29,344 nt of DNA, from the IMG/VR virus record IMGVR_UViG_3300003323_001383; one strand, given 5' to 3'. Made by a program: the position numbers and the translations under genes. Numbering within the stretch: the first letter of the stretch is position 1; each line of letters starts with the position of its first letter. Origin of the DNA: a virus. The notes under the pieces were generated by a model that was not told the origin of the DNA, searched no databases, and saw nothing but the letters and a program-made list of their open reading frames with translations. Of the stretch, positions 28 to 26,271 are shown one piece after another.

Positions 28-405
28 TCACGACTCCATGACCGCGAGGAGGAGCTCCAGCCTCCTCATTTTCTCGGACGAGAGGGCGTCCAGTATGGCC
101 TCCTCCTCGATGAACGGCTCGTGCTGGGAGTCCGAGCGGAGGCGGGAAGAGACGATCTGGGCCGCCTTCTCGTCCGAGACGCGCTCGCTGACGAGGTCGT
201 AGCCGTCGTTCCCGTTCGGGGTCGGCGTCCTCCTCCACCAGGAGCCGCCCTTCCAGTCGACGCAGCTCTCGGCCGACAGGAGGCGGACGCCGAGCCTCTC
301 GGCCTCCAGGGTGAGCCACTCCCCGTCGTCGGACGGGTCGACGTGGAGCTCTATCGGGTCCGTCGAGGAGATGCCGTCCACGACGTCTATGGAGAGGATT
401 CTCAC
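28..405 (-). CDS. hypothetical protein, 125 aa, C-terminus LLLAVMES
   Basis: Complete ORF; strong G/C third-position bias in this frame; GTG start at 405 directly abuts antisense of tRNA-Glu; no domain recognised. Confidence 0.7.
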   Translation of the reverse strand: MRILSIDVVDGISSTDPIELHVDPSDDGEWLTLEAERLGVRLLSAESCVDWKGGSWWRRTPTPNGNDGYDLVSERVSDEKAAQIVSSRLRSDSQHEPFIEEEAILDALSSEKMRRLELLLAVMES

Positions 406-477
406 GGCCCGTTCTTCTAGCGGCTAGGAAGACGCCCTTTCAAGGCGTTAACGCGGGTTCGATTCCCGCACGGGTCA
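406..477 (+). tRNA. tRNA-Glu(UUC)
   Basis: Acceptor GGCCCGT/ACGGGTC (one G:U), anticodon stem ACGCC/GGCGT with loop CTTTCAA, T-arm GCGGG-TTCGATT-CCCGC; no encoded CCA. Confidence 0.85.
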
Positions 478-485
478 CAGCTTAC

Positions 486-557
486 GCCGGCTTAGCAATC
501 CAGGGAATGCACGCGCTTCGTAAGCGCGAGAGGCGGGTTCGAGTCCCGCAGCCGGCT
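486..557 (+). tRNA. tRNA-Thr(CGU)
   Basis: Acceptor GCCGGCT/AGCCGGC, anticodon stem CGCGC/GCGCG loop TTCGTAA, T-arm GCGGG-TTCGAGT-CCCGC. Confidence 0.85.
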
Positions 558-573
558 CTCTGTAATTTCGGAC

Positions 574-984
574 GTGGTCAAGTCGCTAGTGGACGAGACG
601 GAGAGGTTCCTGGACGTCATGGGGTCCTCCGGGGTGTTCGTCCTCGCCAGGATCCCCTGCCCCGACGGCGACCCCGTCGAGGTCAGGCTCATCCGGCGAA
701 AGGACGGGTCGGGGTTCGCCATGACGGTCAAGAGGGGCGAGGCGGGCCTCCTCTCGGACTACTGGCCCGCGTACGAGCACGGCTCCTGGTTCGTCAGCGA
801 CCTGACGGACAAGGACGGGAGGGTGACGACGATCCGGGGGCTCAGCCCCGAGCGTGTCGCCCAGTACGTCCACGAGGACGCGAAGAAGGCGGGGGTGGAG
901 GTCGACCGCCTAGCCCTCGCCGAGGCCATCTCCGACGAGATGATGCTCCGAATGTCGGCCGTCGCCGACGTCCTCCTGAGCTAG
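574..984 (+). CDS. hypothetical protein, 136 aa
   Basis: ORF with GC3 bias from GTG start; ends ..AVADVLLS; no domain recognised. Confidence 0.65.
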   Translation: MVKSLVDETERFLDVMGSSGVFVLARIPCPDGDPVEVRLIRRKDGSGFAMTVKRGEAGLLSDYWPAYEHGSWFVSDLTDKDGRVTTIRGLSPERVAQYVHEDAKKAGVEVDRLALAEAISDEMMLRMSAVADVLLS

Positions 985-1682
985 CACTGGTTCCAGCTCA
1001 TCCCGTGGAGGAACCCGTGCCACCCGTCGACCGCGATGGAGCCGGCGCCGGCCGCGCAGGTGTGGCCACCCTTCCCGACGTGCAGGGTCCCGTCCTCCGG
1101 GCTCCCGGAGATGACCCAGCACCGGTGGGTCTTCTCCTCCCTCATGGTGCAGTTGGACGCCCGTCCGCAGACGTCCCAGTCCACGCCGTTCGGGGTCACG
1201 CCGCGGAGGTGCCTCCCGTCGCAGTTGTCCCAGGCCCAGCAGTGGCCCGGCTCGTGCGAGTCTGACCAGTAGACGTCGCCGGGCTCCGGGCGCCCCGAGG
1301 GCGTGTCGAAGAGCTTCGACGAGGAGACCTGGCGGTTCACTATCTCCCCGGACTGGCCGACCTCCGAGGGGGTCGAGGAGGGAGGGACGGGCGCCCCGCA
1401 ATGGTCGCACTTCGTCGGCCATGCCTCTTCGGGGAAGTCGCCCTCCTCCCCGAAGGACTCCGGGACGGCCTCGGGGAACAGGTAGTCTCGGATGACGGCA
1501 GTGGCGTTGTGGCCGCCGGAGTGGCCCCGCCCGTAGGCGTTCGGGCAGGTGTTCTGGTAGTCGTACCTCGGGTGCCCCTCCGGGCACTGGTCGCACGGAG
1601 CGACGGAGCTGACGATGGCCCGGTCCCAGTAGACGCGGAGCTCGGAGCGCACGCCGACCCTTCGGATTAGCCTGGCCTTCAT
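981..1682 (-). CDS. Cys/His/Trp-rich hypothetical protein, about 233 aa
   Basis: ORF 981-1799 trimmed to first ATG (1682) because the upstream part overlaps the tRNA 5' half at 1721; many Cys/His (HCWAWDNC, HTCAAGAGS, WHGFLHG) suggest metal binding; start uncertain, no clear SD. Confidence 0.55.
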   Translation of the reverse strand: MKARLIRRVGVRSELRVYWDRAIVSSVAPCDQCPEGHPRYDYQNTCPNAYGRGHSGGHNATAVIRDYLFPEAVPESFGEEGDFPEEAWPTKCDHCGAPVPPSSTPSEVGQSGEIVNRQVSSSKLFDTPSGRPEPGDVYWSDSHEPGHCWAWDNCDGRHLRGVTPNGVDWDVCGRASNCTMREEKTHRCWVISGSPEDGTLHVGKGGHTCAAGAGSIAVDGWHGFLHGMSWNQC

Positions 1683-1720
1683 GCGGAGGCCGCCCGATAG
1701 GAGGTGTACTCTCCTCGAAT

Positions 1721-1956
1721 GACCCCGTAGCCTAGAGGAAAGGCACGGCCAAAAACGGAAGCCGCACTCGAAAGAGGGGCCGCTGGAGGGGGCGAGCACA
1801 AGACCGCACGGCGTCGCCGGGGCGGCCCTCTACTCGCCCTGACCTGGACCGAGGTTGCGGATGCACCGAATGGCACGGAGCTCCCGGGTCGCTAGGGAAG
1901 CGCGTTTCCTACATGGTCCTTTGCGGTCGACGCGGGTTCGAGTCCCGCCGGGGTCG
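1721..1956 (+). ncRNA. split tRNA-like gene: canonical 5' (acceptor + D-arm) and 3' (T-arm + acceptor) parts separated by about 180 nt
   Basis: 5' GACCCCG-TA-GCCT-AGAGGAA-AGGC (1721-1744); 3' GCGGG-TTCGAGT-CCCGC-CGGGGTC-G (1932-1956). Acceptor strands pair 7/7. No normal anticodon arm follows the D-arm. Confidence 0.5.
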
Positions 1957-1959
1957 CAG

Positions 1960-1994
1960 TCCCTCCATCGCGCGCTGGCCGCGCGGTGGAGGGA
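1960..1994 (+). terminator. 15-bp perfect stem-loop right after the split tRNA (terminator-like or processing hairpin, no U-tract)
   Basis: TCCCTCCATCGCGCG-ctggc-CGCGCGGTGGAGGGA; 14 Watson-Crick pairs + one G:U; followed by the only strongly AT-rich spacer of the array. Confidence 0.4.
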
Positions 1995-2083
1995 GTAGTA
2001 CTCGAAATAGGTCACGATCTCGTTGATCCTCACATAATTTTTAGTATCGGAAGTGCCCGAGTGGTCGGTCACATTTTTGTCAC

Positions 2084-2157
2084 GGCCAGGTAGCTCAGTT
2101 GGAAGAGCGGTGCACTGAAAATGCACGCGTCGCGGGTTCGACTCCCGCCCTGCGCCA
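2084..2157 (+). tRNA. tRNA-Phe(GAA) with irregular acceptor stem
   Basis: D-arm TAGCTCAGTTGGAAGAGC, anticodon stem GTGCA/TGCAC loop CTGAAAA, T-arm GCGGG-TTCGACT-CCCGC. Acceptor GGCCAGG pairs with CCTG(C)GCC only if one C is bulged; A73. Confidence 0.7.
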
Positions 2158-2196
2158 CAGGGTGCCGGTGCCCTTCCGAAAGGAGAAGCCGGCTAT

Positions 2197-2279
2197 GCTC
2201 AGGTGGTGGAATGGCAGTCACGCCGGCTTGAGGTGCCGGTGACGGAAACGTCGTGCGGGTTCGACTCCCGCCCTGAGCA
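2197..2279 (+). tRNA. tRNA-Leu(GAG)
   Basis: Acceptor GCTCAGG/CCTGAGC, loop TTGAGGT, long variable arm, T-arm GCGGG-TTCGACT-CCCGC. Confidence 0.85.
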
Positions 2280-2284
2280 CTCTT

Positions 2285-2368
2285 GCCGAGGTGGTGGAAC
2301 TGGCAGTCACGCTGCGTTCAGACCGCAGTGCCCGAAAGGGCGTGGAGGTTCGACTCCTCTCCTCGGCA
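2285..2368 (+). tRNA. tRNA-Leu(CAG)
   Basis: Acceptor GCCGAGG/CCTCGGC, anticodon stem CTGCG/CGCAG loop TTCAGAC, long variable arm, T-loop TTCGACT. Confidence 0.85.
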
Positions 2369-2374
2369 CGAACT

Positions 2375-2448
2375 GGAGGTTGACTGGGACGGTTAGACCT
2401 GGCTGCCCTGATAAGGCAGTAGACCGAGTTCGATTCTCGGAGCCTCCA
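2375..2448 (+). tRNA. tRNA-Ile(GAU)
   Basis: Acceptor GGAGGTT/AGCCTCC, anticodon stem CTGCC/GGCAG loop CTGATAA, T-arm CCGAG-TTCGATT-CTCGG; followed by CCA, which overlaps the next tRNA. Confidence 0.8.
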
Positions 2449-2449
2449 C

Positions 2450-2521
2450 CAGGGATAAGGCTCAAGGTGGGCCGCCGGCTTGGGGTGTCGGTGCAGGCGG
2501 GTTCGATTCCCGCATCCCTGA
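2450..2521 (+). tRNA. tRNA-Pro(GGG)
   Basis: C1:G72 acceptor CAGGGAT/ATCCCTG, loop TTGGGGT, T-arm GCGGG-TTCGATT-CCCGC. Confidence 0.8.
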
Positions 2522-2525
2522 CGAC

Positions 2526-2594
2526 GGGGACGTGTGACGGGTCACGGCCTTCCCCCGCAAGGAGGGCTCGCGGGTTCGACTCCCGACGTCTCCA
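2526..2594 (+). tRNA. atypical tRNA-Ala(CGC)-like element (possible pseudogene)
   Basis: Acceptor GGGGACG/CGTCTCC with G3:U70; anticodon stem CTTCC/GGAGG loop CCCGCAA (C at position 33); reduced D-arm GTGA-cggg-TCAC; G:A mismatch at base of T-stem; only 69 nt. Confidence 0.4.
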
Positions 2595-2603
2595 CTCACT
2601 TCT

Positions 2604-2677
2604 CTGGGCGTGGCTCAACCTGGTAGAGCACCGGCTTCGGGTGCCGGGGATTGTGGGTTCGAATCCCGCCGCCCAGA
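2604..2677 (+). tRNA. tRNA-Pro(CGG)
   Basis: C1:G72 acceptor CTGGGCG/CGCCCAG, anticodon stem CCGGC/GCCGG loop TTCGGGT, T-arm GTGGG-TTCGAAT-CCCGC. Confidence 0.85.
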
Positions 2678-2684
2678 CTGTTTC

Positions 2685-2757
2685 GCGAGACGAGGTAGCA
2701 GGTGACACCACCGCCTTGACAAGGCGGCCACGCCGGGTTCGATACCCGGGTCTCGCA
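2685..2757 (+). tRNA. tRNA-Val(GAC)
   Basis: Acceptor GCGAGAC/GTCTCGC, anticodon stem CCGCC/GGCGG loop TTGACAA, T-arm CCGGG-TTCGATA-CCCGG. Confidence 0.85.
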
Positions 2758-2758
2758 C

Positions 2759-2821
2759 GAGGTCGCGCCCAGCGAAGGGCGGTCACACAAGCAAATGGAG
2801 GTTCGAGTCCTCCCGTCCCCA
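2759..2821 (+). pseudogene. tRNA-like remnant lacking a D-arm
   Basis: Good T-arm GGAGG-TTCGAGT-CCTCC and 3' acceptor CGTCCCC-A. The 5' strand GAGGTCG pairs only 5/7 and a single hairpin CGCCC-agcgaa-GGGCG replaces the D and anticodon arms. Confidence 0.3.
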
Positions 2822-2895
2822 CGAGCCCGCGAGGGCCACCCACGGGGATGTAGCCGAAATGGAATAGGCAACGATATTGAAAATCGTCAACATAT

Positions 2896-2913
2896 CCCGA
2901 TCCCCACATCGGG
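2896..2913 (-). terminator. stem-loop downstream of the sigma-factor gene
   Basis: CCCGAT-ccccac-ATCGGG, 15 nt past the stop at 2928; followed on the minus strand by an AT-rich tract (atatgttgacgattttc). Confidence 0.35.
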
Positions 2914-2927
2914 CGCGACCCAGCTCT

Positions 2928-3497
2928 TTAGAGGACGAAGTCCTCCGCCAGGGCCTCCCGCAGGCGCGAGATGGTCCGGGCGTGTATCTGCGAGATGCGG
3001 GGCTCGGACACGCCGAGCTCGGCCGCTATGGAGCGATAGTCCACGCCGTGGACGTGGTGGGAGACGAAGATGTGGCGCTCGCGCCACGGGAGGAGGTCGA
3101 CGAGTTCCCAGACCTTCGACAGGGCGAGGGCCGCCGCGGTCCTTGCCTCGACGTCGTCGCCCGACATTGCGTCCTCGAGCGACCTGTGCCCGGAGTCGAC
3201 GAGGACGTGGACCGCCCTGTCCGGGTCGCCCTTGGCCCTCATGCGGTGGTGCCTCGGCATCCAGTCCTTCGTCCGCAGGTCGTCCTTTATGGCGCCGCGG
3301 ATCCTTATCCTCGCGTAGGCCCCGAAGTTCTCGCAGTCGGGGTGGAGGCGCGCCGCGTCCCAGAGGCCGGACATCGCGGCCGCGTGGAGGTCGTCGTACA
3401 TGATGTGCGCCGGAAGGCGCCGCTTGAACCCGAGCGCGATGCTGCGGGCGAGGTGTGCGTGGTCCTTCATGAGGATCGAGACGCGATACTCGTTCAC
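2928..3497 (-). CDS. sigma-70 family RNA polymerase sigma factor (FliA/group 3-4-like), 189 aa
   Basis: Region 2 motif YARIRIRGAIKDDLR and region 4.2 helix-turn-helix IAAELGVSEPRISQIHARTISRLRE; GTG start. Confidence 0.85.
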   Translation of the reverse strand: MNEYRVSILMKDHAHLARSIALGFKRRLPAHIMYDDLHAAAMSGLWDAARLHPDCENFGAYARIRIRGAIKDDLRTKDWMPRHHRMRAKGDPDRAVHVLVDSGHRSLEDAMSGDDVEARTAAALALSKVWELVDLLPWRERHIFVSHHVHGVDYRSIAAELGVSEPRISQIHARTISRLREALAEDFVL

Positions 3498-3587
3498 CCC
3501 TTAAGGATAGCATTCGTCAACCCTTACGATAAGGTATTCTCCAAAAGCTTGTGGGCGGCCGTAGCACAGCCGTTGCCGCCCTGACAC

Positions 3588-3659
3588 CGGGACGTAGCCT
3601 AGAGGCAAGGCGCATGTTTTGGGTACATGCTCACGCAGGTTCGACTCCTGTCGTCCCGA
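3588..3659 (+). tRNA. tRNA-Pro(UGG)
   Basis: C1:G72 acceptor CGGGACG/CGTCCCG, anticodon stem CATGT/ACATG loop TTTGGGT, T-arm GCAGG-TTCGACT-CCTGT. Confidence 0.85.
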
Positions 3660-3661
3660 CT

Positions 3662-3734
3662 GTGGCCGTAGCCAAGCGGTTAAGGCGGTCGGTTGTGGTC
3701 CGACTATTCGCGGGTTCGAATCCCGCCGGTCACC
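3662..3734 (+). tRNA. tRNA-His(GUG)
   Basis: Acceptor GTGGCCG/CGGTCAC, anticodon stem GTCGG/CCGAC loop TTGTGGT, T-arm GCGGG-TTCGAAT-CCCGC, C73; no G-1 encoded (T precedes). Confidence 0.85.
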
Positions 3735-3753
3735 CAGAGTGTAGTCTAGGTCG

Positions 3754-4035
3754 GTGTCGTCAGCGAAGGTCCAGGTCGTGGTCGTCGACCACAGGAGAAA
3801 GAGGAGGGAGGGATCCGGGACCCTCGGCGTCCTCCTCGTCGAGTACCCCTACTCGGCGTACGTGCTCCAGAACCCCGCCATCAGCGGGCGCGGGAACACG
3901 GAGGAGGAGGCCGTGGAGGCCGTAAGGAAGGCCCTCCTGACCGTAGACAAGTTCGACCTCGGCAAGGAGTCCCGGAAGGTCGTCGAGCTCGACATCGCCG
4001 ACGAGATGACGGTCCGCGACGTGATGGAGGGATAG
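3754..4035 (+). CDS. small protein with HicB/UPF0150-like signature, 93 aa, C-terminus VRDVMEG
   Basis: Segment YSAYVLQNPAISGRGNTEEEAVEAVRKAL resembles the HicB-type antitoxin fold motif; GTG start; its GGAGGG near the stop is the SD for the next gene. Confidence 0.5.
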   Translation: MSSAKVQVVVVDHRRKRREGSGTLGVLLVEYPYSAYVLQNPAISGRGNTEEEAVEAVRKALLTVDKFDLGKESRKVVELDIADEMTVRDVMEG

Positions 4036-4036
4036 G

Positions 4037-4642
4037 ATGGACGACTCGGAGATCAAGGTTACGCCGGCCCAGAGGCTGGCCGCCCAGGTGCTGGACGCCT
4101 TCACCCGGAAGGACGTCCCGGGCCTGGAGGACATGGACCCGAAGGACCCGTTCGCCGTCATGACCAAGGCGAGCGAGTCTCTGTTCACGCTCACGATGGA
4201 CCTCCTGAGGCGCTCCGGCGGACCGGTCGGGGAGATGTGCTCCTACGCCTGGGACGTCTTCCACCACGGCCACGTGCAACTTGCGGTCGGGCCCGAGGTC
4301 CCGTCCCTCCACGTCGCCATCGTCGGGACGGCCAAGGAGGCCCGGTGCCTCGTGTTTGTCCCCCACGGTTGGCCCGACATGATCAAGGAGGCGCCCCTCA
4401 TGCAGGCGGGGGCCATCGTCTTCACGGCGTCCCAGGTCGTCGACTTCTACAACGGCATGTACCCTCCGAAGACCCCGTCCTCCAGGATCCAAGAGCGGGC
4501 GTCCGCCTTCGAGGCGGAGTTCCTGAGGGACGCCGACATCTCCTCCCTGAACGAGTACCAGAGGGGCGTCGTGGCGAGGAACAAGCCGGGAGGCCTGGCG
4601 AAGATGACCTACGTCCGCCGGCCGATGGCCGGGAAGAACTGA
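4037..4642 (+). CDS. hypothetical protein, 201 aa
   Basis: ATG 1 nt after upstream stop, preceded by GGAGGG; GC3-biased frame; no domain recognised. Confidence 0.7.
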   Translation: MDDSEIKVTPAQRLAAQVLDAFTRKDVPGLEDMDPKDPFAVMTKASESLFTLTMDLLRRSGGPVGEMCSYAWDVFHHGHVQLAVGPEVPSLHVAIVGTAKEARCLVFVPHGWPDMIKEAPLMQAGAIVFTASQVVDFYNGMYPPKTPSSRIQERASAFEAEFLRDADISSLNEYQRGVVARNKPGGLAKMTYVRRPMAGKN

Positions 4643-6738: not shown

Positions 6739-7095
6739 ATGTCGAGGAGGATGGGGCGGGAGCCCCTCCCCTCCCCGGTGTCGCACCGGTCCTACCTCGC
6801 CAGCCCGGCGTTCGGGCTGGCAAGGTCGGGCCGCAGCATCTTCTCGGTCCCGAAGAGGGGGCCGCTCTTCTACGCCGACTTCGAGGCGACGGAGCTCCGG
6901 ATGATGGCCTCCCTGGGCCTCTTCAGGTTCCCGTGCCCCGCCTGCGGAGACCCGCTCCTGGCGAGCGCCCGCTCCGGACGGAGGTCGATGGGGTACCCGC
7001 ACGACCTTGCCGGAAGCCAGGACGACATCCTCGTCCAGCACGCCCTGAAGAAGGGGGACCCCGAGCACGGCGTCCTCCTCGTCATGACGGCGTAG
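6739..7095 (+). CDS. hypothetical protein, 118 aa, C-terminus VLLVMTA
   Basis: GC3-biased frame starting at ATG 6739; contains FYADFEATELRMMA (resembles family-A polymerase motif A) and CPACG. Confidence 0.6.
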   Translation: MSRRMGREPLPSPVSHRSYLASPAFGLARSGRSIFSVPKRGPLFYADFEATELRMMASLGLFRFPCPACGDPLLASARSGRRSMGYPHDLAGSQDDILVQHALKKGDPEHGVLLVMTA

Positions 7096-7364: not shown

Positions 7365-7658
7365 ATGACCAAAACAAAGCTAGTTCAGGCGCTCTCGGAA
7401 CAGAACGACATCACCCGGGCCCAGGCCAAGGGGATCCTCGACAGTCTCTACTCGATCGCGGAGAACGCGCTGAGGGAGGAGGGGTCGTTCACCCTCCCGG
7501 ACGTCGTGAAGCTGACCCTGAAGGACGTCCCGGCGCAGCCGGAGCGGCAGACGATCAACCCCTTTACCAAGCTTCCTCACACCTCGCCCCCGCGCCCGGC
7601 CTCGAAGAAGGTGAAGGCGTCGCCGGCGGCGACCATCAAGAAGGCGTTCCAGAAGTAG
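7365..7658 (+). CDS. HU/IHF family DNA-binding protein, 97 aa
   Basis: MTKTKLVQALSEQNDITRAQAKGILDSL...FTLPDVVKL...RQTINPFT matches the bacterial histone-like fold pattern; SD GGGGAAG upstream of ATG. Confidence 0.85.
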   Translation: MTKTKLVQALSEQNDITRAQAKGILDSLYSIAENALREEGSFTLPDVVKLTLKDVPAQPERQTINPFTKLPHTSPPRPASKKVKASPAATIKKAFQK

Positions 7659-7661
7659 GGC

Positions 7662-8648
7662 ATGTCCTGGCGGGACCTGCTCCAGAAGGAGGACGAGAGC
7701 CTCGTCCTCCCGTGGACCGGAGGGAGGACCGTCCTCTCGCCGGGCCCCGCGTACCAGATGCAGGGTCCGAAGCCCAGGGAGCACGGGTGGAAGGCTTTCC
7801 AGATAAAGGGAAGGAACGCCTTCCACGTCGGCCCGTCGGACCCGGAGGTCTCCGTCCTCGGAAGGCGCGTCACCGGGTACCTCGTCGGGGACCGCGTGGT
7901 CCCCGACGGGACACGGGTGGCCTCCGGCTACGATGGGATAATCTACTCCTCGGAGGCGGTCCACCTCCTCGAGCCCGGGATCGCCAGGTTCGCCAGGGTG
8001 TCCGCCGGCCGCGTCGCCGACGGGGCGCCCCTGGTCTTCGTCTCGGAGGAGATGCCGCTCGGGCCCGAGCAGGACGTCCTCGCCGCGTTCCAGGACCGGG
8101 CCCCGAACCTGGACGGGATCCGCGACGTCGAGCCAGCGCTCTACGCGGCCTTCGTCCTGGAGGTCGGCCAGAGGGCGTCGGCGGAGAAGGCCAGGGCCGA
8201 GCTCGAGGCGCAGCGCGCCCTGGAGGCCGCCCAGGCGGCCGAGAGGGAGCGGATCGGGAGGCTCGTGGAGCAGCTCTCGGACGCGCGCGGGAGGCGCGAG
8301 ATGGCGGCCTACGACTTCGCCCAGGCCGCGTCGGCGGCGCTGACCCTGGCGGAGGCTGAGTACCTGGACCACCGGGCGTCCGCCAACCGAGGGGAGATGG
8401 TCGTTACCTTCCGCCTCGAGGGGCGGAGGTTCGAGTGCGTGTGCGACGCCAGGACACTCCGGATCGTCGACTCGGGCATCTGCCTCGTCGACCACAGGAC
8501 CGGGGTCCGCGGCGACGACCGTTTCACCCTCGAGTCGCTCCCCGGCGTCATCCGCCTGGCGATGAGGACCGGCAGGCTTCACGTCTTCCGCCGGGTCGAC
8601 GACGACTACGGCGAGCGGGAGCACGATGACGACGACTACGACGACTAG
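7662..8648 (+). CDS. hypothetical protein, 328 aa, acidic C-terminal tail
   Basis: GC3-biased ORF starting 3 nt after the HU stop; central Ala/Glu/Arg coiled-coil-like segment; tail DDDYGEREHDDDDYDD. Confidence 0.7.
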   Translation: MSWRDLLQKEDESLVLPWTGGRTVLSPGPAYQMQGPKPREHGWKAFQIKGRNAFHVGPSDPEVSVLGRRVTGYLVGDRVVPDGTRVASGYDGIIYSSEAVHLLEPGIARFARVSAGRVADGAPLVFVSEEMPLGPEQDVLAAFQDRAPNLDGIRDVEPALYAAFVLEVGQRASAEKARAELEAQRALEAAQAAERERIGRLVEQLSDARGRREMAAYDFAQAASAALTLAEAEYLDHRASANRGEMVVTFRLEGRRFECVCDARTLRIVDSGICLVDHRTGVRGDDRFTLESLPGVIRLAMRTGRLHVFRRVDDDYGEREHDDDDYDD

Positions 8649-18053: not shown

Positions 18054-18080
18054 CTCGGGCTCTCATCGAAAGGGCGGGAC

Positions 18081-18287: not shown

Positions 18288-18328
18288 GGAGGCGAGGCCG
18301 ATAGACCCCATGTAAGGTCTCCGAGGAT

Positions 18329-18784
18329 ATGGCGGAGATCCGGAAAGCGTTGACGAAGAGGTACGTCGTGGATCCGAAGCTCCTCCCGGAGCTCGGGCCC
18401 GGCAGGACCGTGGTGACCGGCTACATGTCGGACGACCCGTCGGTCAGGCTCCGGGCGACCGACACAGGCGCCTGGATCCAGATATGGAGGCCGTCGGACG
18501 CCTCCCGATACTTCGAGTATCAGATACCCCTGGAGGAGGCCGAGTCCATGATGGAGCTCTGCTTCCGGCGCACCGCCAGGACGACCTGGGAGGTCAGGCA
18601 CGGCGGAATGACGTGGAGGGTGTGCGAGTACTCGGGGAGGCACGCCGGACTCTGGACCGCGTTCCTCGAGCTCGACACGAGGAGCACGGGCTACGAGGAG
18701 CCGCCGTGGGCCGTCAAGAACGTGAGCGGGGACCGTCGCTTCACGGACGAGGGGCTCTCGCGCCTGCAGAGGACGCCCTCCTGA
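18329..18784 (+). CDS. CYTH-like (triphosphate tunnel metalloenzyme family) protein, divergent, 151 aa
   Basis: Overall pattern EIRK..., GYM...VRLR, RYFEYQIPLEEAE, TWEVRHGG..W.V.EY.G...GL..AFLEL, PPWAVKNVSGDRRFTDEGL parallels CYTH strands; the N-terminal ExExK motif is degenerate (EIRK). Confidence 0.45.
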   Translation: MAEIRKALTKRYVVDPKLLPELGPGRTVVTGYMSDDPSVRLRATDTGAWIQIWRPSDASRYFEYQIPLEEAESMMELCFRRTARTTWEVRHGGMTWRVCEYSGRHAGLWTAFLELDTRSTGYEEPPWAVKNVSGDRRFTDEGLSRLQRTPS

Positions 18785-18834
18785 GGCTCTGCGGGACCAA
18801 GGGCTGCGGCGCCGAGGCCGTGCGCTTCTTCCTC

Positions 18835-19020
18835 ATGACGGGGGCGATCAAGGTCCTCGCGATGACGTGCGAGGACTGCGCCCGGTTCACGGGGCCCGAG
18901 TACACGCCGGTCACGGTCCTCGTGGAGGAGATCGGGGAGGGCGAGCTCGCCGTGCTCGAGGTCATGGAGATTGAGACGGTGCGAGGCTGGACGCCGGGGG
19001 CGCAGCCTCGCACCCGATAG
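18835..19020 (+). CDS. hypothetical small protein, at least 61 aa
   Basis: Frame open upstream to 18484 and includes a CxxxxC pair (LCGTKGC) before the first ATG, so a non-ATG start (GTG 18820 or CTG 18781 overlapping the upstream stop) is possible. The TAG stop is the first 3 nt of tRNA-Gln. Confidence 0.35.
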   Translation: MTGAIKVLAMTCEDCARFTGPEYTPVTVLVEEIGEGELAVLEVMEIETVRGWTPGAQPRTR

Positions 19021-20580: not shown

Positions 20581-21036
20581 TCAGTCGCTCATCACCTGGT
20601 TGACGATCAGGAAGTTGTGGACGAACTCGGCGAGGTCCTTCGCCTCCTTGACGCCGAAGAGCCGGTGCTGGGGGCAGACCACGAAGTTCAGGCGGTCGGC
20701 GATCCTCACCAGGCGGGGGAACGTCGTCCGGGAGTTCGCCCCCTTCTTCGGGAGGGGCTGCTCCTTCCAGTTCCTCCCCATCGTCCTCCACGTCCCCTCG
20801 GGGACGGGGCTGTCCGGAGTTGTCAGGTGGGAGTAGGACCACCGGATGTGGACGGTGCGGCTCGTGGCCTTCAGGAACCCGAGCTCCACGGAGTGCTCCT
20901 CCTCACGGACTATCCCGTCGGAGCCGACGACCTTGGCCGTCACGATGACGGTCTTGTCCCATCCGTCCCCCGTGAAGGACGGGGTCCCGATGGAGATCCT
21001 GTAGGGGACGTCGCTCGCCTTGAGCTCCGGCCTCAT
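20581..21036 (-). CDS. hypothetical protein, 151 aa, C-terminus VNQVMSD
   Basis: ORF 20581-21510 trimmed to ATG 21036, which overlaps the upstream stop (ATGA); the upstream extension is Arg/Gly-rich out-of-style sequence. Confidence 0.65.
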   Translation of the reverse strand: MRPELKASDVPYRISIGTPSFTGDGWDKTVIVTAKVVGSDGIVREEEHSVELGFLKATSRTVHIRWSYSHLTTPDSPVPEGTWRTMGRNWKEQPLPKKGANSRTTFPRLVRIADRLNFVVCPQHRLFGVKEAKDLAEFVHNFLIVNQVMSD

Positions 21037-21477: not shown

Positions 21478-21559
21478 GCCGTCGTGGTGGAACTGGCAGT
21501 CACAGCGCACTCAAAACGCGCCGCCTCAGGGCGTGCGGGTTCGACTCCCGCCGACGGCA
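21478..21559 (+). tRNA. tRNA-Leu(CAA)
   Basis: Acceptor GCCGTCG/CGACGGC, anticodon stem GCGCA/CGCGC (A:C next to loop) loop CTCAAAA, long variable arm, T-arm GCGGG-TTCGACT-CCCGC. Confidence 0.8.
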
Positions 21560-21840
21560 CGAAACCTGGCCTTCCGGAACTCCTCGACCTTCTGCTTGTT
21601 CCGCCACCCCCGGACCTTCTTCCGCGAAACGCGGAGCTCGGACGGGTCGTAGGCGTAGCGCAGGAGGCTGGGGATCCAGTAGACGTCGACCTCCGGGCCG
21701 TAGACGCCGTTCCCGAAGTAGGCCGGCCCGACCACGATCCCGGAGCAACCTCCGAACTCGGCGACGTGCTCCCGGGACCCGTTGGCGCGGAAGGCCTTCC
21801 GGAGGGAGGCGGACATGCGGACGACGGTCCCGGGGGTCAT
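21526..21840 (-). CDS. hypothetical protein, 104 aa
   Basis: ATG overlaps upstream stop (ATGA); GC3-biased; last ~11 codons run antisense through tRNA-Leu(CAA). Confidence 0.6.
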   Translation of the reverse strand: MTPGTVVRMSASLRKAFRANGSREHVAEFGGCSGIVVGPAYFGNGVYGPEVDVYWIPSLLRYAYDPSELRVSRKKVRGWRNKQKVEEFRKARFRAVGGSRTRTP

Positions 21841-22073
21841 TCCGGGTCGAACTCGAGATAGGAGTAGACCGCCACGGCCCCGTCGTCGTGCTTGACGAAG
21901 TACAGGTCGCCCCCGGCGCCGCCGACCGCATCGAGGACCTGGCCGGAGGCCCCGTTCTTCCGGGCGGCGACGAGGTCGGCCCCGCCGATCATGCCCATCG
22001 TGGCGTTCTTCTCGAAGCAGTCCACGGTCCGCACGCGGACGCCCCTCTTCAAGATTTGGCTCGGCTGCTCCAT
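21837..22073 (-). CDS. hypothetical protein, 78 aa
   Basis: ATG-initiated, GC3-biased, first gene of a minus-strand run 22073 to 19090. Confidence 0.6.
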   Translation of the reverse strand: MEQPSQILKRGVRVRTVDCFEKNATMGMIGGADLVAARKNGASGQVLDAVGGAGGDLYFVKHDDGAVAVYSYLEFDPE

Positions 22074-22149
22074 GCCGAGGAATACAACGACGTTAGCCCG
22101 ACTTTCGCGGAGGGAAAGTCAAGACAGTAACATAGACAGGCAGGAACCG

Positions 22150-22668
22150 ATGAGAACCCTTCTTCTGACCCCGTGGCTCTTCCCGCACAAGGTCCTCTCC
22201 TGGGAGGACGCCGTGACCCTCGTCTACCGGGGGAAGGTCGACGTCCTGGTCGAGTACGGCCAGGAGGTCTCCTCCCCGTCCGTGACGTGGAAGGTCCCGG
22301 CGGTGCTGCGCCTGCGCAAGCCCATCGGGCACATGCGGAGGGGCGTGAAGTTCTCCCGACTGAACGTCTTCACCCGGGACAAGTTCCGGTGCCAGTACTG
22401 CGGGGAGAAGTTCTGCTTCGACGACCTGACCTACGACCACGTCATCCCGGCCCGCCTCGGCGGCGAGAAGGACTGGGAGAACATCGTGACGGCCTGCAGC
22501 CCCTGCAACAACAGGAAGGGCGGCAGGACCTGCGACCAGGCCAGGATGTGGCCGCTGAACTGGCCGAAGAAGCCAGAGTCCGTCCCGGCGACCGGCCCCC
22601 TGATCAAGAGGGACGGTATCCCCGAGGAGTGGCAGGGCTTCTGCGACGGCCTCATACACATCACGTGA
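22150..22668 (+). CDS. HNH endonuclease, 172 aa
   Basis: CQYCGEKF...LTYDHVIPARLGGEKDWENIVTACSPCNNRKG = canonical HNH/McrA-type motif. Confidence 0.85.
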   Translation: MRTLLLTPWLFPHKVLSWEDAVTLVYRGKVDVLVEYGQEVSSPSVTWKVPAVLRLRKPIGHMRRGVKFSRLNVFTRDKFRCQYCGEKFCFDDLTYDHVIPARLGGEKDWENIVTACSPCNNRKGGRTCDQARMWPLNWPKKPESVPATGPLIKRDGIPEEWQGFCDGLIHIT

Positions 22669-22689: not shown

Positions 22690-23214
22690 ATGGGCGCAAC
22701 CGGCTATAACCCCCTTCAACAGATGGTCCCGTCCGGGCCGTCGGGTCCCTTCGGGATCCCTGTCGTCATGAAGGCATTCCCGGAGGAAGGACACGCCGTC
22801 CTGGAGGAGCTCGTCCTGACGGACAGGCTGAAGGTCCTCCTGAAGGCCCGGGCGAGATACCAGGCCGTGGGCTCCCTTCAGTTCATGCCGAGCGCCTCCG
22901 CCGTCCTCGTGGAGAGGAGGGAGGACGGGACGACGAGCGAGAGGGAGATCGCCAGCATGACCATGCCGGAGATCCTGGGCCTTCCCTCCACGTCGCTGAT
23001 GTGGCAGAACATCGTCCTCTACCTGGAGACGGCCCACAAGCTCTCGGTGAAGGAAGACAAAGGCAAGATACGGGACGCCTGCGCGGCGGCCGGGAAGGCG
23101 GCGATGAAGTTCACGGCCACCCTCATGGCGGACGTCGCGATGGGCGTCCTGAACGACGAGGATATGGCCGAGGCCAAGGACTCGGCAGTAGTGTTGCAGG
23201 TCATGGAGACCTGA
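22690..23214 (+). CDS. hypothetical protein, 174 aa, C-terminus VLQVMET
   Basis: ATG-initiated GC3-biased ORF; stop 6 nt before tRNA-Ser(GGA). Confidence 0.65.
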   Translation: MGATGYNPLQQMVPSGPSGPFGIPVVMKAFPEEGHAVLEELVLTDRLKVLLKARARYQAVGSLQFMPSASAVLVERREDGTTSEREIASMTMPEILGLPSTSLMWQNIVLYLETAHKLSVKEDKGKIRDACAAAGKAAMKFTATLMADVAMGVLNDEDMAEAKDSAVVLQVMET

Positions 23215-23220: not shown

Positions 23221-23302
23221 GGAGCGTCCTGCTGAAGGCTGGCAACGGGACTGGAAATCCCGGGGGACCGAAAGGTCGGTGGTTCGATTCCACGGCGCTC
23301 CG
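23221..23302 (+). tRNA. tRNA-Ser(GGA)
   Basis: Acceptor GGAGCGT/GCGCTCC, anticodon stem CGGGA/TCCCG loop CTGGAAA, long variable arm, T-loop TTCGATT. Confidence 0.8.
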
Positions 23303-23308
23303 CGAAGG

Positions 23309-23391
23309 GGAGACACAACCCGATAGGCGACGGGACCGGTTTTGAAAACCGGCGAGCTACGGCCTTGGGAGTTCGACTCTCCCTGTCTCCG
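23309..23391 (+). tRNA. tRNA-Ser(UGA)
   Basis: Acceptor GGAGACA/TGTCTCC, anticodon stem CCGGT/ACCGG loop TTTGAAA, long variable arm, T-arm GGGAG-TTCGACT-CTCCC. Confidence 0.85.
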
Positions 23392-23398
23392 CGTGTAC

Positions 23399-23481
23399 GG
23401 AAGGACCTGCCGAATGGCCGGCAACGGGACTCGAAATCCCGGGGCACCGAAAGGTGGGAGGTTCGATCCCTCGTCCTTCCG
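23399..23481 (+). tRNA. tRNA-Ser(CGA)
   Basis: Acceptor GGAAGGA/TCCTTCC, anticodon stem CGGGA/TCCCG loop CTCGAAA, long variable arm, T-loop TTCGATC. Confidence 0.8.
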
Positions 23482-23495
23482 CAGTAAGATACCCC

Positions 23496-23999
23496 ATGGA
23501 GCCAATCGAGCTCGTGCGCGGCATCCGGGTCGAGAGCGTCCGCGTGGGCGCCCAGACGATGAAGGAGGTCGACCCGAGCAGGCCGGGCTCCCTCCGGCGC
23601 GGATCCACGATCTGCCACTACAACGTCACCGTCGTCTACCCGAACGGGCTGAGGAAGAACCTGTCCACGGCCTGGGACGGACTCGGAAGGAAGGTCGCGA
23701 GGGCCGTGGGGCTCAGGCTCCAGGGGAAGGCCGCGCTGGACGCCGCGCTCGAGGCGAACCGGATCGTGTTCGCGGCCGTGGAGGCCTTCCGCCAGTCGCC
23801 CGCCTGCGCCGACCTGGAGGGGAAGGCCCTGGCGGCCGAGCGCCGGAAGCTGCAGAGGCACGACGAGAGGGAGGCCGAGGCGCAGAGGAGGCGGGACGTC
23901 AACGAGATCAAGCGCTGCCTCCGGAGGACCTTCCTGACGGAGGAGCAGGTCCTGGACCTCTGGAGGGAGGCCCAGGTCTCCGAGGTCATGGAGTCCTGA
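23496..23999 (+). CDS. hypothetical protein, 167 aa, C-terminus VSEVMES
   Basis: ORF trimmed to ATG 23496 (upstream part overlaps tRNA-Ser); Arg/Glu/Ala-rich helical C-terminal half. Confidence 0.65.
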   Translation: MEPIELVRGIRVESVRVGAQTMKEVDPSRPGSLRRGSTICHYNVTVVYPNGLRKNLSTAWDGLGRKVARAVGLRLQGKAALDAALEANRIVFAAVEAFRQSPACADLEGKALAAERRKLQRHDEREAEAQRRRDVNEIKRCLRRTFLTEEQVLDLWREAQVSEVMES

Positions 24000-24401
24000 T
24001 CAGTCGACGCGGACCTTCTTCGCGGCCTGAGGCTGGGCCGCCGGAATGACGATGGTCATATAGCCGTCCTCGACCTTCGCCGATATGGCGTCGAGGTCCG
24101 CCTTCTCGGAGATGGCGATCTTCACCGAGCTCTTCTGCCCGTCGAGCTTCCTCGTCCACTCGACCTGGAGGGACCTCGAGCTCACGGACACGTCGACGTC
24201 GCCCTTCTTGCACCCGGGCACCTCGAGCTCGACGGTGACGACCGGGAGGCCGTCGCGCTTCTCCTTCGTCACCTTGTGGGTCGAGTGCCCGAGGCGGACC
24301 GACGTCCCCTCGAGGGCGTCGTCGAAGATGGACTCGACGGTGTCCATGGCCTTGTCGAGGGCGTTCGAGATGCGGCGCACGTGCACGAAGAGGTCGTCCA
24401 T
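24000..24401 (-). CDS. Hsp20/alpha-crystallin family small heat-shock protein, 133 aa
   Basis: LPVVTVELEVPGCKKGDVDVSVSSRSLQVEW...AKVEDGYMTIVIP matches the alpha-crystallin domain pattern. Confidence 0.75.
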   Translation of the reverse strand: MDDLFVHVRRISNALDKAMDTVESIFDDALEGTSVRLGHSTHKVTKEKRDGLPVVTVELEVPGCKKGDVDVSVSSRSLQVEWTRKLDGQKSSVKIAISEKADLDAISAKVEDGYMTIVIPAAQPQAAKKVRVD

Positions 24402-24410
24402 TCCGCCACT

Positions 24411-25043
24411 CTACACTCTGGAAGATGAATCGCCCGTGGGGGCGAGCCCGGTTGCTGCCCGGTGCGGACCTTCGGGTCTGGAGATCGAGCCTCCCGTCTT
24501 CCTCCACTGCCATCCACCCGACCAGCCTTCAAACAATCCTTTGAGACGCGCCTCCCTGACAGCAGGGACGATCAGCATCCAGGCTTGATAAGGCATATCT
24601 TTCCGTATATAGTTGCATCGGACGCAGGAGGGGATGACATTCGATTGGAGATGTCCGATGTCGTTATCGATCCTGTCCAACGTCATGCGACCCTCGGTCT
24701 CCAGGCAGTACGCGCAGCCACCCGATATTCGTTCTCGGATGAAATCAGCAGTCAGGTCGTTCTCCCGGCCTCGCCTCCTATCACCTTTTCTGGAATCTAT
24801 GAGAATAAATTTCTCAGGATTCAGGTTCTGAGACCTAGCCTCTCTTATCAAAGAGTTGATCCGGTCTTTCCCCGACCTGGTCCTCTTCCGAGGTGTTTTC
24901 TTATATCGAGCCCCGCGACCCTTCCCGTCACATTTCCGGCATATACTACGAGGCTTGCCGTACATCACCCTCATCAAGGATGGTTCTTTCTCCTCCCCGC
25001 AGGCCTTACATTTGATCTTTTGCGGAATAATGTCCGACATCAC
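24411..25043 (-). CDS. HNH-type homing-endonuclease-like protein, 210 aa, in an AT-richer island
   Basis: CAYCLETEGRMTLDRIDNDIGHLQSNVIPSCVRCNYIRKD = HNH core; N-terminal CKAC...CRKC zinc-finger-like pairs; composition and codon choice (aaa, att, ttt, gat) unlike neighbours. Confidence 0.75.
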   Translation of the reverse strand: MMSDIIPQKIKCKACGEEKEPSLMRVMYGKPRSICRKCDGKGRGARYKKTPRKRTRSGKDRINSLIREARSQNLNPEKFILIDSRKGDRRRGRENDLTADFIRERISGGCAYCLETEGRMTLDRIDNDIGHLQSNVIPSCVRCNYIRKDMPYQAWMLIVPAVREARLKGLFEGWSGGWQWRKTGGSISRPEGPHRAATGLAPTGDSSSRV

Positions 25044-25100
25044 TTCGACTTCCGCAATAGGAAGTCTCTCGCCTCCGCCTTTCCGCCGTAATCTCCGACC

Positions 25101-25499
25101 ATGGATCCCGACCTATGCTTCATACCCGATGTCAACATCGACGATGACGATGCGGGGGAGGCGGACCGCCGCCTGGCCTACCTCCGGTCCATCATCCGGG
25201 AACGTAGGCAGGACGGGGACTGCGCCTGGTCCTTCGGGTTCGACTTCAGCGGGTCGAACCACGCGCACGGGATCGTGTACGTGGTCGACTCGCGCCCCGG
25301 GTCCACCCGAGTGTGGGAGCTCTCGAAGAAGCACGAGGAGTGGAACGGCACGCCGAGGGCCGGAAGGAGGAGGTTGTCGATGGAGCCCCCGCCTGGCCAG
25401 CAGGTCGCCCACGTCCCGAAGGGGCTGTTCCAGCTCGAGGCCGAGGACCTCGTCGCGGCCATGGCGGAGATCATGGCCGGACGGATCTTCGATGCGTAG
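25101..25499 (+). CDS. hypothetical protein, 132 aa
   Basis: ATG-initiated GC3-biased ORF; near-terminal AMAEIMAGRIFDA. Confidence 0.65.
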   Translation: MDPDLCFIPDVNIDDDDAGEADRRLAYLRSIIRERRQDGDCAWSFGFDFSGSNHAHGIVYVVDSRPGSTRVWELSKKHEEWNGTPRAGRRRLSMEPPPGQQVAHVPKGLFQLEAEDLVAAMAEIMAGRIFDA

Positions 25500-25536
25500 C
25501 TGGTTCATCGTCCACCCGCTCTGGGACTGCGCGACG

Positions 25537-25779
25537 ATGATGGCCGAGTACCACGGAGGGCGCGCTGAGGTGTTCGTCGAGTATCGGGACACCCCGTGGG
25601 AGGGGGTGAGGCCCTTCCGCATCCAGGTCGGGGAGTTCGACGGCCTGGAGATCAGGGCGTTCAACGAGATGCAGGAGAGCCTCAAGGACGTCAGGGAGTC
25701 CGCTGGGGAGGAGGGCTGGAAAAGGTTCATGGAGGAGCTCCGCAAGGCGTTCGTGATGGCCGAGGTCATGGAGTCCTGA
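25537..25779 (+). CDS. hypothetical protein, about 80 aa, C-terminus MAEVMES
   Basis: In-frame tail of ORF 24856-25779; first ATG after the upstream gene's stop is 25537. The earlier part of the ORF is antisense to the HNH gene. Confidence 0.55.
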   Translation: MMAEYHGGRAEVFVEYRDTPWEGVRPFRIQVGEFDGLEIRAFNEMQESLKDVRESAGEEGWKRFMEELRKAFVMAEVMES

Positions 25780-25786
25780 CAGCCGG

Positions 25787-25815
25787 TTGACGGAGGACGC
25801 CCGAAGGCGTAGAAT
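25787..25815 (+). promoter_or_regulatory. sigma-70-type promoter TTGACG-N17-TAGAAT
   Basis: Near-consensus hexamers with 17-nt spacer in a 93-nt intergenic gap; downstream AAGGAGG + short ORF (25843-25860, MRITA) and a second GAAGGAGG before ATG 25873. Confidence 0.5.
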
Positions 25816-25872
25816 GGCCGCATGAGAGAAAGGAGGTGCGCGATGCGGATCACAGCCTGAAGGAGGCCCCAT

Positions 25873-26271
25873 ATGAAGAAGCGCAAGCAAAGAGCGCGCC
25901 CAACGAGGCGCGTCCATAACCTGTACGTGCACGTTCTGACCGGCTCGTCGTCGATCATGTCGTACATGCACTACAGGATCCAAGACGTGTCCGTGGCCCG
26001 GCAGATAATGGCCCTCACCTTCGCCCGGGAGTGGGGAGGCAGGTCCGGCATCGACGTCAAGAGGCTCGAGGGCATCGTCGTGCGCGGACCGGTCCCCGAG
26101 GTCATCGCTCGCTACGCCAAGGAGGTCCCGGGAGCGAACCTGCGCCGCATCACGAGGGCGGTCGTCAGGACGGGCGACGTCCGCGCGATGAGGGTCCTCG
26201 CCGGCGTCCCGGGCGTGGACCGGGCCTACCTGGAGAACGCCATCGTCGTGGCGGAAGTCATGGCCGTCTGA
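25873..26271 (+). CDS. hypothetical protein, 132 aa, C-terminus VAEVMAV
   Basis: Strong SD GAAGGAGG 6 nt upstream of ATG; basic N-terminus MKKRKQRARPTRR. Confidence 0.7.
   Translation: MKKRKQRARPTRRVHNLYVHVLTGSSSIMSYMHYRIQDVSVARQIMALTFAREWGGRSGIDVKRLEGIVVRGPVPEVIARYAKEVPGANLRRITRAVVRTGDVRAMRVLAGVPGVDRAYLENAIVVAEVMAV

Follow-up and report, generated by a model that had tools for sequence, protein, structure and literature searches.

A shared C-terminal tail on dissimilar accessory proteins of a tRNA-rich huge phage lineage, and its probable role as a docking tag

Why should a series of otherwise dissimilar small phage proteins finish in nearly the same few residues? The question is raised by a 29,344-nucleotide stretch of viral DNA (IMG/VR record IMGVR_UViG_3300003323_001383), called here the window, for which a preliminary description had listed eleven coding sequences (CDS) ending in Val-Met-Glu-Ser/Thr or a close variant. 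All eleven of the listed ends translate as they were written, and two Val-Leu variants can be added to them. The carriers of the tail in the window are given below; L numbers denote contigs and loci with which the window was compared, and the neighbouring genes named here are described further on.

28-405, minus strand: carrier, 125 residues, ends LELLLAVMES (tail codons 31-54)
574-984, plus strand: Val-Leu variant carrier, 136 residues, ends AVADVLLS; absent from the preliminary list
3754-4035, plus strand: carrier, 93 residues, ends TVRDVMEG (tail 4009-4032)
6739-7095, plus strand: carrier, 118 residues, ends GVLLVMTA; directly 3' of the VWA gene
8650-9021, plus strand: carrier, 123 residues, Cys-rich, ends VVALVMET
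9800-10522, plus strand: carrier, 240 residues, ends LAQNVMDS; between the JAB gene and the gene for a putative ubiquitin-like protein
12147-12506, plus strand: Val-Leu variant carrier, 119 residues, ends AAACVLSS
14618-14953, plus strand: carrier, 111 residues, ends LLVEHVMES; homologue in L001
20581-21036, minus strand: carrier, 151 residues, ends FLIVNQVMSD
22690-23214, plus strand: carrier, 174 residues, ends SAVVLQVMET; also called in ENA contig L096
23496-23999, plus strand: carrier, 167 residues, ends EAQVSEVMES; convergent with the Hsp20 gene
25537-25779, plus strand: carrier, 80 residues (95 from the ENA start at 25492), ends AFVMAEVMES
25873-26271, plus strand: carrier, 132 residues, ends AIVVAEVMAV

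The first question is whether this many similar ends could be fortuitous. Counting back from the last residue (-1), Val-Met stands at -4/-3 in 11 of the 46 window CDS, where residue shuffles expect 0.10 (binomial P = 9e-20), and pooling the window with four close relatives gives 46 of 171 proteins with a Val-Met tail, the internal rate of this dipeptide being 0.002 per position. Gene calls in GC-rich DNA are imperfect, a difficulty reduced by the independent gene calls supplied with the loci and by six-frame counts. The 96 control loci, taken from related phages (1.79 Mb; 25,168 six-frame open reading frames, ORFs), held 23 VMxx-stop ends, or 0.013 per kb, and one match to an extended form of the motif, as against 0.375 per kb and seven extended matches in the window. 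The earlier judgement that the ends lie far beyond chance is thus borne out. So is the claim that the motif is strictly terminal: the pattern [LVIAM][VAIL]xxV[ML]x[STGA] matched 35 times at a terminus and six times internally, with ∼7.8 matches expected anywhere by chance, which puts the internal matches at chance level. Relative to the free C-terminus, the motif is held at one spacing, with two residues after it, and at no other. The nucleotide string GTSATGGAG occurs nine times in the window; seven occurrences are terminal, and the other two lie in the following ORFs, which had been reported to carry EVME near their ends and in which the motif is indeed followed by GAG.

17584-17847, plus strand: ORF with an internal motif (FLAAEVMEA at 17758-17781), then GAG (17782-17784) and 21 more codons
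18835-19020, plus strand: ORF with an internal motif (LAVLEVMEI at 18949-18972), then GAG (18973-18975) and 15 more codons

Because GAG is a single substitution away from TAG, these two ORFs have probably lost their stop codons. A comparable read-through, with residues after the motif in place of a stop, is found in an orthologue at 9666-10001 of L022. All three may reflect recent loss of a stop codon, an assembly variant or a means of turning the tag off.

The form of the tail was derived by aligning the C-termini of 53 carriers from the window and the four close relatives as a sequence logo, with the following preferences.

Position -8: Leu, Val or Ala
Position -7: Val or Ala
Position -5: Asp or Glu
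Position -4: Val
Position -3: Met, sometimes Leu
Position -2: often Glu (20 of 53)
Position -1: Ser in 30, Thr in 8, Gly in 4 and Ala in 4 of the 53

Thus, whilst the terminal Val-Met is real, the word tetrapeptide is too narrow: the motif is longer, with -8, -7 and -5 also constrained, and -2 and -1 are its most variable positions. There is a weak signal at -11 and -13 and only background beyond about -13, which gives a tail of 8-13 residues with the consensus [L/V/A]-[V/A]-x-[D/E]-[V/I]-[M/L]-x-[S/T/G/A]-COOH. The hydrophobic positions are spaced i, i+1, i+4, i+5, which corresponds to one face of an alpha-helix. An AlphaFold2 model of the 9800-10522 protein (pLDDT 77, pTM 0.74) is all-helical, and in it the tail forms the end of the last helix (residues 224-239); a Foldseek search of the PDB with this model gave no match below E = 0.2.

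Is it the peptide or the DNA that is conserved? The preliminary description had favoured the peptide on the grounds that codons vary where the code allows. They do vary, although within a GC-rich window (GC content ∼67% across the 29.3 kb) this is a weak argument, and it is the relatives of ∼50% GC that are decisive: in L025, L084 and L023 the same residues are spelled with GTA, GTT, ATC or ATA, with GAA, with TCA, TCT or AGC, and with TAA as the stop. The Val at -4 is encoded by GTC in 37 of 53 carriers, compared with 65% GTC elsewhere (Fisher P = 0.56), and the choice of stop codon is that of the non-carriers. Since synonymous codons match the background and the ∼50% GC relatives use others, the constraint acts on the peptide.

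Within families the tail stays whilst the body drifts, as seen in the orthologue groups and for the 3754-4035 and 9800-10522 proteins. A search of 1.84 billion representative proteins yielded eight homologues of 3754-4035, and every one of them keeps the tail (DVMEE, DVLEG, DVMET, DIMSG, DVMSG, DVMNG, DIMSG and SIMES); by eye the body of 3754-4035 (..YSAYVLQNPAISGRGNTEEEAVEAVRKALL..) may resemble HicB/UPF0150-type antitoxin domains, and Pfam gave no match. Homologues P0122-P0124 of 9800-10522 end SEVMGS, SDVMGS and SDVMGS. Orthologues and paralogues of 28-405 in L019, L022 and L020 finish in EVLDS, EVLAS, EVMSS, EVMRS and EVLES. Orthologues of 6739-7095, a gene called independently in an ENA contig, end in VMSA, VMES and VMGT, and orthologues of 8650-9021 in YLVMES, ALVMGT and RLVIEA. 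The orthologue of the variant 574-984 in L001 (6511-6906) ends VLCDVLCS, and that of 12147-12506 in L020 (18135-18419) ends SVRCVMSS. In L110, the orthologues of 22690-23214, 23496-23999 and 25873-26271 end HSAVVLQVMET, RAAQVSEVMES and AIVVAEVLSV, respectively, and the ORF syntenic with 20581-21036 ends YLVVHSVMTE; a longer version of the window ORF, reaching 21510, would overlap two tRNA-Leu genes. Two of these genes touch tRNA predictions. ARAGORN places a tRNA-Gly at 6959-7044 on the minus strand inside CDS 6739-7095, which Rfam does not confirm and which is probably a false call, and the last ∼10 nt of 12147-12506 overlap the predicted 5' end of tRNA-Arg(cct) at 12497-12572, an overlap that recurs in L020 (18410-18419).

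The bodies to which the tails are attached are, as had been observed by eye, dissimilar. After removal of the last 12 residues the carriers fall into 27 clusters (phmmer and profile hmmsearch), and all-versus-all hhalign linked only three of 351 cluster pairs at a probability of at least 50%. The profiles are shallow and a very remote kinship could escape them, but by these comparisons there appear to be ∼24 families without detectable mutual similarity. Their members range from 38 to 318 residues and are not one paralogous family. Two carriers, both encoded by a 76-kb IMG/VR contig of a relative, could be given a domain: one with a Tad2-like (anti-Thoeris) domain (8.6e-9), ending EVMDT, and one a DHH/DHHA1 phosphoesterase (7e-10), ending AVMET, whose homologue in the motif-free phage Rctr197k has no tail. 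At least two carriers therefore look, from these matches, like anti-defence or signal-degrading proteins. Zinc-ribbon-like proteins are also represented, and CxxC pairs are somewhat enriched among the carriers (22 of 53, against 23 of 99). No charge bias separates carriers from non-carriers, and none of the upstream k-mers does so. For ten window carriers (25537-25779 being left out), Pfam at E up to 1 gave nothing credible and the same number had no match in PHROGs; word-indexed protein searches on carriers yielded only four hits and one hit. In the sampled regions, the tail was never seen on housekeeping proteins (sigma factors, HU, RNR, clamp-loader subunits, ThyX, RtcB and the VWA, JAB and E1 proteins).

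To what kind of element does this set of proteins belong? The preliminary description had not recognised it as a tRNA-packed huge phage. The VWA protein, for which over 1,600 homologues (52-80% identity) were found, marks 73 loci on IMG/VR viral contigs, mostly of 130-620 kb; its GenBank match is Virus Rctr197k (KX853510.1; 197 kb, Caudoviricetes). With the tRNA content described below, these homologues on huge viral contigs identify the window as an accessory region, rich in tRNA genes, of a huge tailed phage that is so far represented in metagenomes only. Short ENA contigs, L096 amongst them, are identical to the window, and 25 kb of it gave no megablast match to GenBank phages or PLSDB plasmids.

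The tail is confined to part of this phage group. The motif-positive sequence sampled amounts to about 150 kb, and any count for a whole genome is therefore an extrapolation; within each sampled motif-positive region, a quarter to a third of the genes have the tail. In a VWA-protein tree, the clade of the window is made up of the motif-rich loci (L001, L019, L020/21 and L022), with tails on 7-13 of 22-39 genes each. L025 joins this clade; L084 is placed in an adjacent part of the tree, as is, less firmly, L023, and in these last two position -3 may also be His, Gln or Asn. L003 groups with L025 and the window clade and showed no tails, and none were found at the syntenic loci of other huge phages. 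Rctr197k and the IMG/VR contigs that carry VWA, JAB and ThiF genes resemble the window in their long same-strand tRNA arrays, in this gene module and in their HNH endonucleases and phosphatases, but the tail is essentially missing from them: none of 49 CDS has it in the region of Rctr197k examined, and the one extended match in the 1.79 Mb of control sequence is that counted above. In contrast, a 436-kb contig (IMG/VR 3300032782_000001) has it at three places.

322-344 kb of the 436-kb contig: L025
65-85 kb of the 436-kb contig: L121, 10 ends in 20.5 kb
85-93 kb of the 436-kb contig: L127, tandem array of six genes of 64-81 residues

The array in L127 adjoins two large proteins encoded on the minus strand (566-1549 and 1587-4502) with long collagen-like GPxGPx repeats, which are probably fibres. 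The same phage encodes, at 7881-10487 of L127 (8-2494 of L121), an 868-residue protein with matches to the Major Vault Protein (MVP) shoulder (4e-29) and vault repeat (1e-10). If it forms a vault-like shell, that shell could be where tagged proteins are sent; a scan of IMG/VR with this protein matched only itself. An exact search with the 18-mer GAGGTCATGGAGTCCTGA brought in a single further viral member (L098), along with a few contigs from metagenomes, most of them fortuitous matches. Two of the latter, L099 and L103 (GC 0.54, unrelated-looking), share a 448-codon ORF ending DVAASEVMES, which may be a chance match or a tagged protein of another lineage.

What, then, would such a tail do? A C-terminal tag common to the carriers, be it for degradation, targeting or docking, had been among the suggestions of the preliminary description, and this is the right class of explanation. 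We think it probable that the tail is a common docking tag. It would form the last two turns of an amphipathic helix, with -8, -7, -4 and -3 on the hydrophobic face and acidic residues flanking it, and would be read together with the chain end by a single receptor specific to the phage lineage. The tag would then load diverse accessory and anti-defence proteins into a phage-built assembly, most likely the prohead or virion, from which they would be delivered with the DNA. This outcome, loading into the head or another assembly, is put forward tentatively and by analogy, and the complete proposal, from docking to loading, is likewise a possibility to which we give rather less than even weight. 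A broader statement is somewhat easier to support: on balance we lean towards the view that this huge-phage lineage runs its own proteome-scale C-terminal sorting code, in which a dedicated receptor reads the helical tail and carboxylate on dozens to more than 100 unrelated accessory proteins per genome, anti-defence factors included, followed either by head loading or by a timed hand-over to a protease.

The analogy is with the capsid targeting sequence of T4 and the cargo peptides of encapsulins, although here it is the other end of the protein, or a different sequence, that is used. The heads of giant phages contain more than 50 gene products, many of them ejected (PMC10052503). The T4 internal proteins are diverse anti-defence proteins that have only the capsid targeting sequence in common; as with the present tail, a peptide of ∼10 residues is all that unites small and otherwise dissimilar phage proteins, a hypervariable group in which several counter host defence, and it routes this fast-evolving, lineage-specific set to one destination, the prohead core (PMC3012670). 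The T4-type sequence differs in being N-terminal and cut by the prohead protease after [L/I]-x-E, whereas the tag of the window is at the extreme C-terminus; the sequences are unrelated, and the carriers of the window lineage are far more numerous and are not basic. Encapsulin peptides dock on the inner face of a shell with the HK97 fold, the fold of tailed-phage capsids, and are Gly/Leu-rich and extended (LTVGSL-type), with no fixed distance to the chain end. Like the tail, they are C-terminal targeting peptides of ∼10 residues carried by unrelated cargo (PMC7925596). Encapsulin operons have few cargo types, compared with dozens of carriers here, and no encapsulin shell gene was present among the window proteins scanned against Pfam, which were most but not all of them.

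Several points weigh against loading into the head. The number of carriers is very high for packaged cargo, at roughly 0.2-0.5 per kb, which, should the sampled regions be typical, could exceed 100 in a 400-kb genome. Their bodies are not basic, unlike those of the T4 internal proteins, and their genes lie among tRNA, sigma-factor and accessory genes rather than beside structural ones. The sigma-70-like promoter match of one carrier hints weakly at early rather than late expression, and a Tad2-type sponge acts stoichiometrically, so that little would be gained from injecting a few copies. In T4-like and giant phages, the head-targeting peptides known so far stand at the N-terminus and are removed by cleavage. 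The sole usable structural model, that of 9800-10522, was built from just four sequences. Finally, no receptor was found, and a search of gene distributions gave no gene tied specifically to the motif-positive genomes.

The alternative that survives best is a C-terminal degron by which an AAA+ protease would remove accessory, probably early, proteins, an adaptor reading the hydrophobic face and the protease reading the end, so as to give temporal control or to keep toxic proteins short-lived. Taken by itself we regard it as doubtful, but loading and a class-wide degron are about equally plausible, loading being slightly favoured. The fixed distance to the free C-terminus, the large hydrophobic residues at -3/-4 and the small residue at -1 would be compatible with a degron; ssrA (..YALAA-COOH) and the eukaryotic C-degrons share this end-position logic. 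The bipartite signal (-8/-7 and -4/-3/-1) recalls ssrA, in which an adaptor and a protease bind separate sites, very many carriers would be natural for a class-wide turnover signal, and the stop-loss variants would be an easy escape from it. In contrast to the tail, which is gene-encoded, acidic and helical and unlike LAA in sequence, the ssrA peptide is added by transfer-messenger RNA (tmRNA), for which neither ARAGORN nor Rfam found a gene in the window. Acidic residues are common at -2 and -5, and in Escherichia coli acidic ends block recognition by ClpX. No gene for a Clp, Lon or FtsH protease or for an adaptor was seen in the motif-positive sequence sampled. A host protease alone would not explain the lineage specificity either, as the motif is missing from sister phages that presumably have similar hosts. 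We know of no bacterial virus with anything like a quarter of its proteome under one degron.

Next comes the idea that the tail, instead of being a docking tag for a dedicated receptor, binds some shared and abundant hub on which each carrier acts or by which it is regulated. Such a hub could be a sliding clamp of phage or host, RNA polymerase or a sigma factor, a chaperone (the Hsp20 of 24000-24401, for instance) or a vault-like shell protein. The T4 clamp gp45 is bound in this way by several unrelated proteins through C-terminal tails. These tails, the EEVD ends of Hsp70/90 read by TPR domains, the -SKL of PTS1 read by Pex5 and the ligands of PDZ domains all resemble the present case in that a few terminal residues are read, with the carboxylate, by one receptor domain. 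In favour of a hub, the tail looks like a short docking motif of helical form, and the phages encode clamp-loader subunits, several sigma factors and Hsp20, one motif-positive genome having the MVP-like protein as well. None of the consensuses of the known docking motifs just named fits the tail, and no gene for a TPR or PDZ receptor was found in the sampled regions. The bacterial clamp motif, QL[SD]LF or QLxLxL, has no counterpart in a logo without Gln or aromatic positions, the tail is unlike the IxI of small heat-shock proteins, and PDZ ligands need a hydrophobic last residue where the carriers mostly end in Ser, Thr, Gly or Ala. It is hard to see why a phosphoesterase or a Tad2-like sponge for signal molecules should be bound to a hub of replication or transcription, and the candidate hubs of the window (VWA, JAB, E1 and others) occur in motif-free phages too. 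We therefore consider a hub-binding motif improbable.

Shared ancestry or folding is less probable still. The tail could be the remnant of one duplicated ancestral gene, or simply a favoured way to finish a C-terminal helix. There are tandem arrays of carriers (L022 5341-7265, L019 5166-6207 and L127 4731-7015), some neighbouring carriers are detectable paralogues, and the CxxC enrichment given above would fit. Against this stand the ∼24 families left unlinked by profile-profile comparison once the tail is removed, and the spread of sizes and of bodies, which include a DHH/DHHA1 enzyme, a Tad2-like protein, an all-helical 240-residue protein and zinc-ribbon-like proteins. Conservation of the tail alone down to ∼53% VWA identity would need selection on the tail itself, and sister phages that share this gene architecture end their helices in other ways.

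The preliminary description had also proposed that the tails are substrates of an E1/JAB system, undergoing C-terminal adenylation or processing by the ThiF-like E1 and the JAB peptidase. Both lie among the carriers, in a module of five genes that is conserved throughout the huge-phage superclade.

4706-6730: VWA-domain protein
7662-8648: 328-residue protein with an acidic tail
9387-9791: JAB, weak match
10542-10847: ∼100-residue (101-residue) protein ending FG
10894-11466: ThiF-type E1, 190 residues (Pfam ThiF, 2.6e-23)

Each of these genes is kept in 60-86 related loci classed as motif-free, a class that includes Rctr197k: the ThiF, JAB and ∼100-residue genes in 60-69 (E1 in 69), the VWA gene in 86 and the 328-residue gene in 78. 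Co-occurrence of substrate and E1, as expected of ubiquitin-like or ThiS/MoaD-type substrates, is thus lacking. The ∼100-residue protein beside the E1 has a nearly invariant C-terminus, RPKT[PSE]FG, sometimes with 1-4 extra residues, and on sequence grounds shows the pattern expected of an E1 and JAB substrate; the E1 already has this candidate partner beside it. Substrates of this class have a flexible Gly(-Gly) end, whereas the carriers end in Ser, Thr, Gly or Ala (mostly Ser or Thr) after a helix. The E1 itself is just 190 residues long and covers positions 22-147 of the 238 in the ThiF profile. Because the module occurs in motif-free loci and an FG-ended partner is present, the tails are very unlikely to be E1 substrates, and this part of the earlier proposal is not supported. 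The module looks like a phage-encoded ubiquitin-like activation system. That 10542-10847 is ubiquitin-like is suggested by its position and its invariant FG end; the fold could not be confirmed, as a single-sequence AlphaFold2 model was unusable (pLDDT 41) and a profile of 11 homologues had no match in the PDB.

Least credible of all is a nucleic-acid signal, with the conserved GTCATGGAGTCNTGA serving as the Shine-Dalgarno sequence of the next gene, as a cassette recombination site or as a termination context and the peptide being incidental: ATGGAG does contain GGAG, the next gene begins 1 nt past a stop at 4035/4037, and the tail DNA is nearly uniform inside the GC-rich window, but the downstream context is a mixture of convergent genes, tRNAs and gaps of 25-90 nt, Glu at -2 is present in just 20 of the 53 carriers, changes at -8, -7 and -3 keep hydrophobicity (L/V/A, V/A, M/L) and not nucleotides, and the codon usage is that described above. 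The codon evidence and the heterogeneous downstream context lead us to reject Shine-Dalgarno, DNA-site (recombination-site) and start-codon readings.

Returning to the docking tag, terminal peptides for sorting or degradation are a known device, and no description of this motif, or of any comparable phage-wide C-terminal tag, was found in the literature searched. What sets this one apart is the C-terminal position in a phage, the sequence, the scale (a quarter to a third of sampled genes) and a receptor still to be found. Most genes of huge phages are small and lack an assigned function; a shared tag links a quarter or more of these and implies a common fate for their products, and a one-line sequence rule lists the whole tagged set in any related genome. 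If the tag loads the head, it defines the injected arsenal of a megaphage and would provide a portable peptide for packaging foreign proteins into large capsids. If it is a degron, this would be the first phage to time a whole protein class by one signal, and the tail a new orthogonal bacterial degron. Either way, the receptor would be a new peptide-recognition module, and the clean split of close relatives into tagged and untagged phages gives a basis for a comparative search for it.

The carriers are set in a region dominated by tRNA genes, of which the window has ∼34 by ARAGORN and 27 by Rfam, spread over 406-23482 and interleaved with short genes. The Rfam-confirmed ones are on the plus strand only; 11881-11952, also plus, is called by Rfam and not by ARAGORN. 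The set includes three tRNA-Ser, five tRNA-Leu, a tRNA-Ile(tat) and initiator or elongator Met, and there is no suppressor among the window tRNA calls. Since 22-31 tRNAs are also found beside the VWA gene in close and distant relatives, these phages carry near-complete tRNA sets. Examples of the tRNA stretches, and the remaining recognisable genes of the window, are the following.

2084-2758: tRNA stretch
2928-3497, minus strand: sigma-70-type factor
about 7365-7658: HU
13850-14539: receiver domain
16274-16945, minus strand: DSP-like phosphatase
16950-17260: tRNA stretch
21892-22668: HNH endonuclease
23221-23482: tRNA stretch
24000-24401, minus strand: Hsp20
26725-27132: NUDIX

Single-protein scans of IMG/VR with the phosphatase-like 16274-16945 and with 21526-21840 (104 residues) found no relatives. 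The interval 24402-25100 is of lower GC (0.59) and without a convincing gene. Two sigma-70-like promoter matches lie at 24585-24613 and 25787-25815, the second just upstream of the carrier 25873-26271.

In GTDB, the VWA protein is found on contigs binned into Myxococcota metagenome-assembled genomes (MAGs), at least one of which (L007) has the same tRNA arrays. The host is possibly a myxobacterium, an assignment taken solely from the MAG binning. The GTDB contigs with the phage VWA module (L003-L018) were binned into MAGs of Myxococcota (Kofleriaceae, Polyangia, Sorangium) and Methylobacter, L007 having 26 tRNA genes; they are probably huge-phage contigs mis-binned with their hosts, or else unrecognised prophage or episomal DNA. 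In L115, the minus-strand region 14331-18883 has adjacent genes for ThyX, a protein with an OGFr_N domain and a protein resembling adenylosuccinate synthetase. This third product may be PurZ, in which case the DNA could contain 2-aminoadenine (Z).

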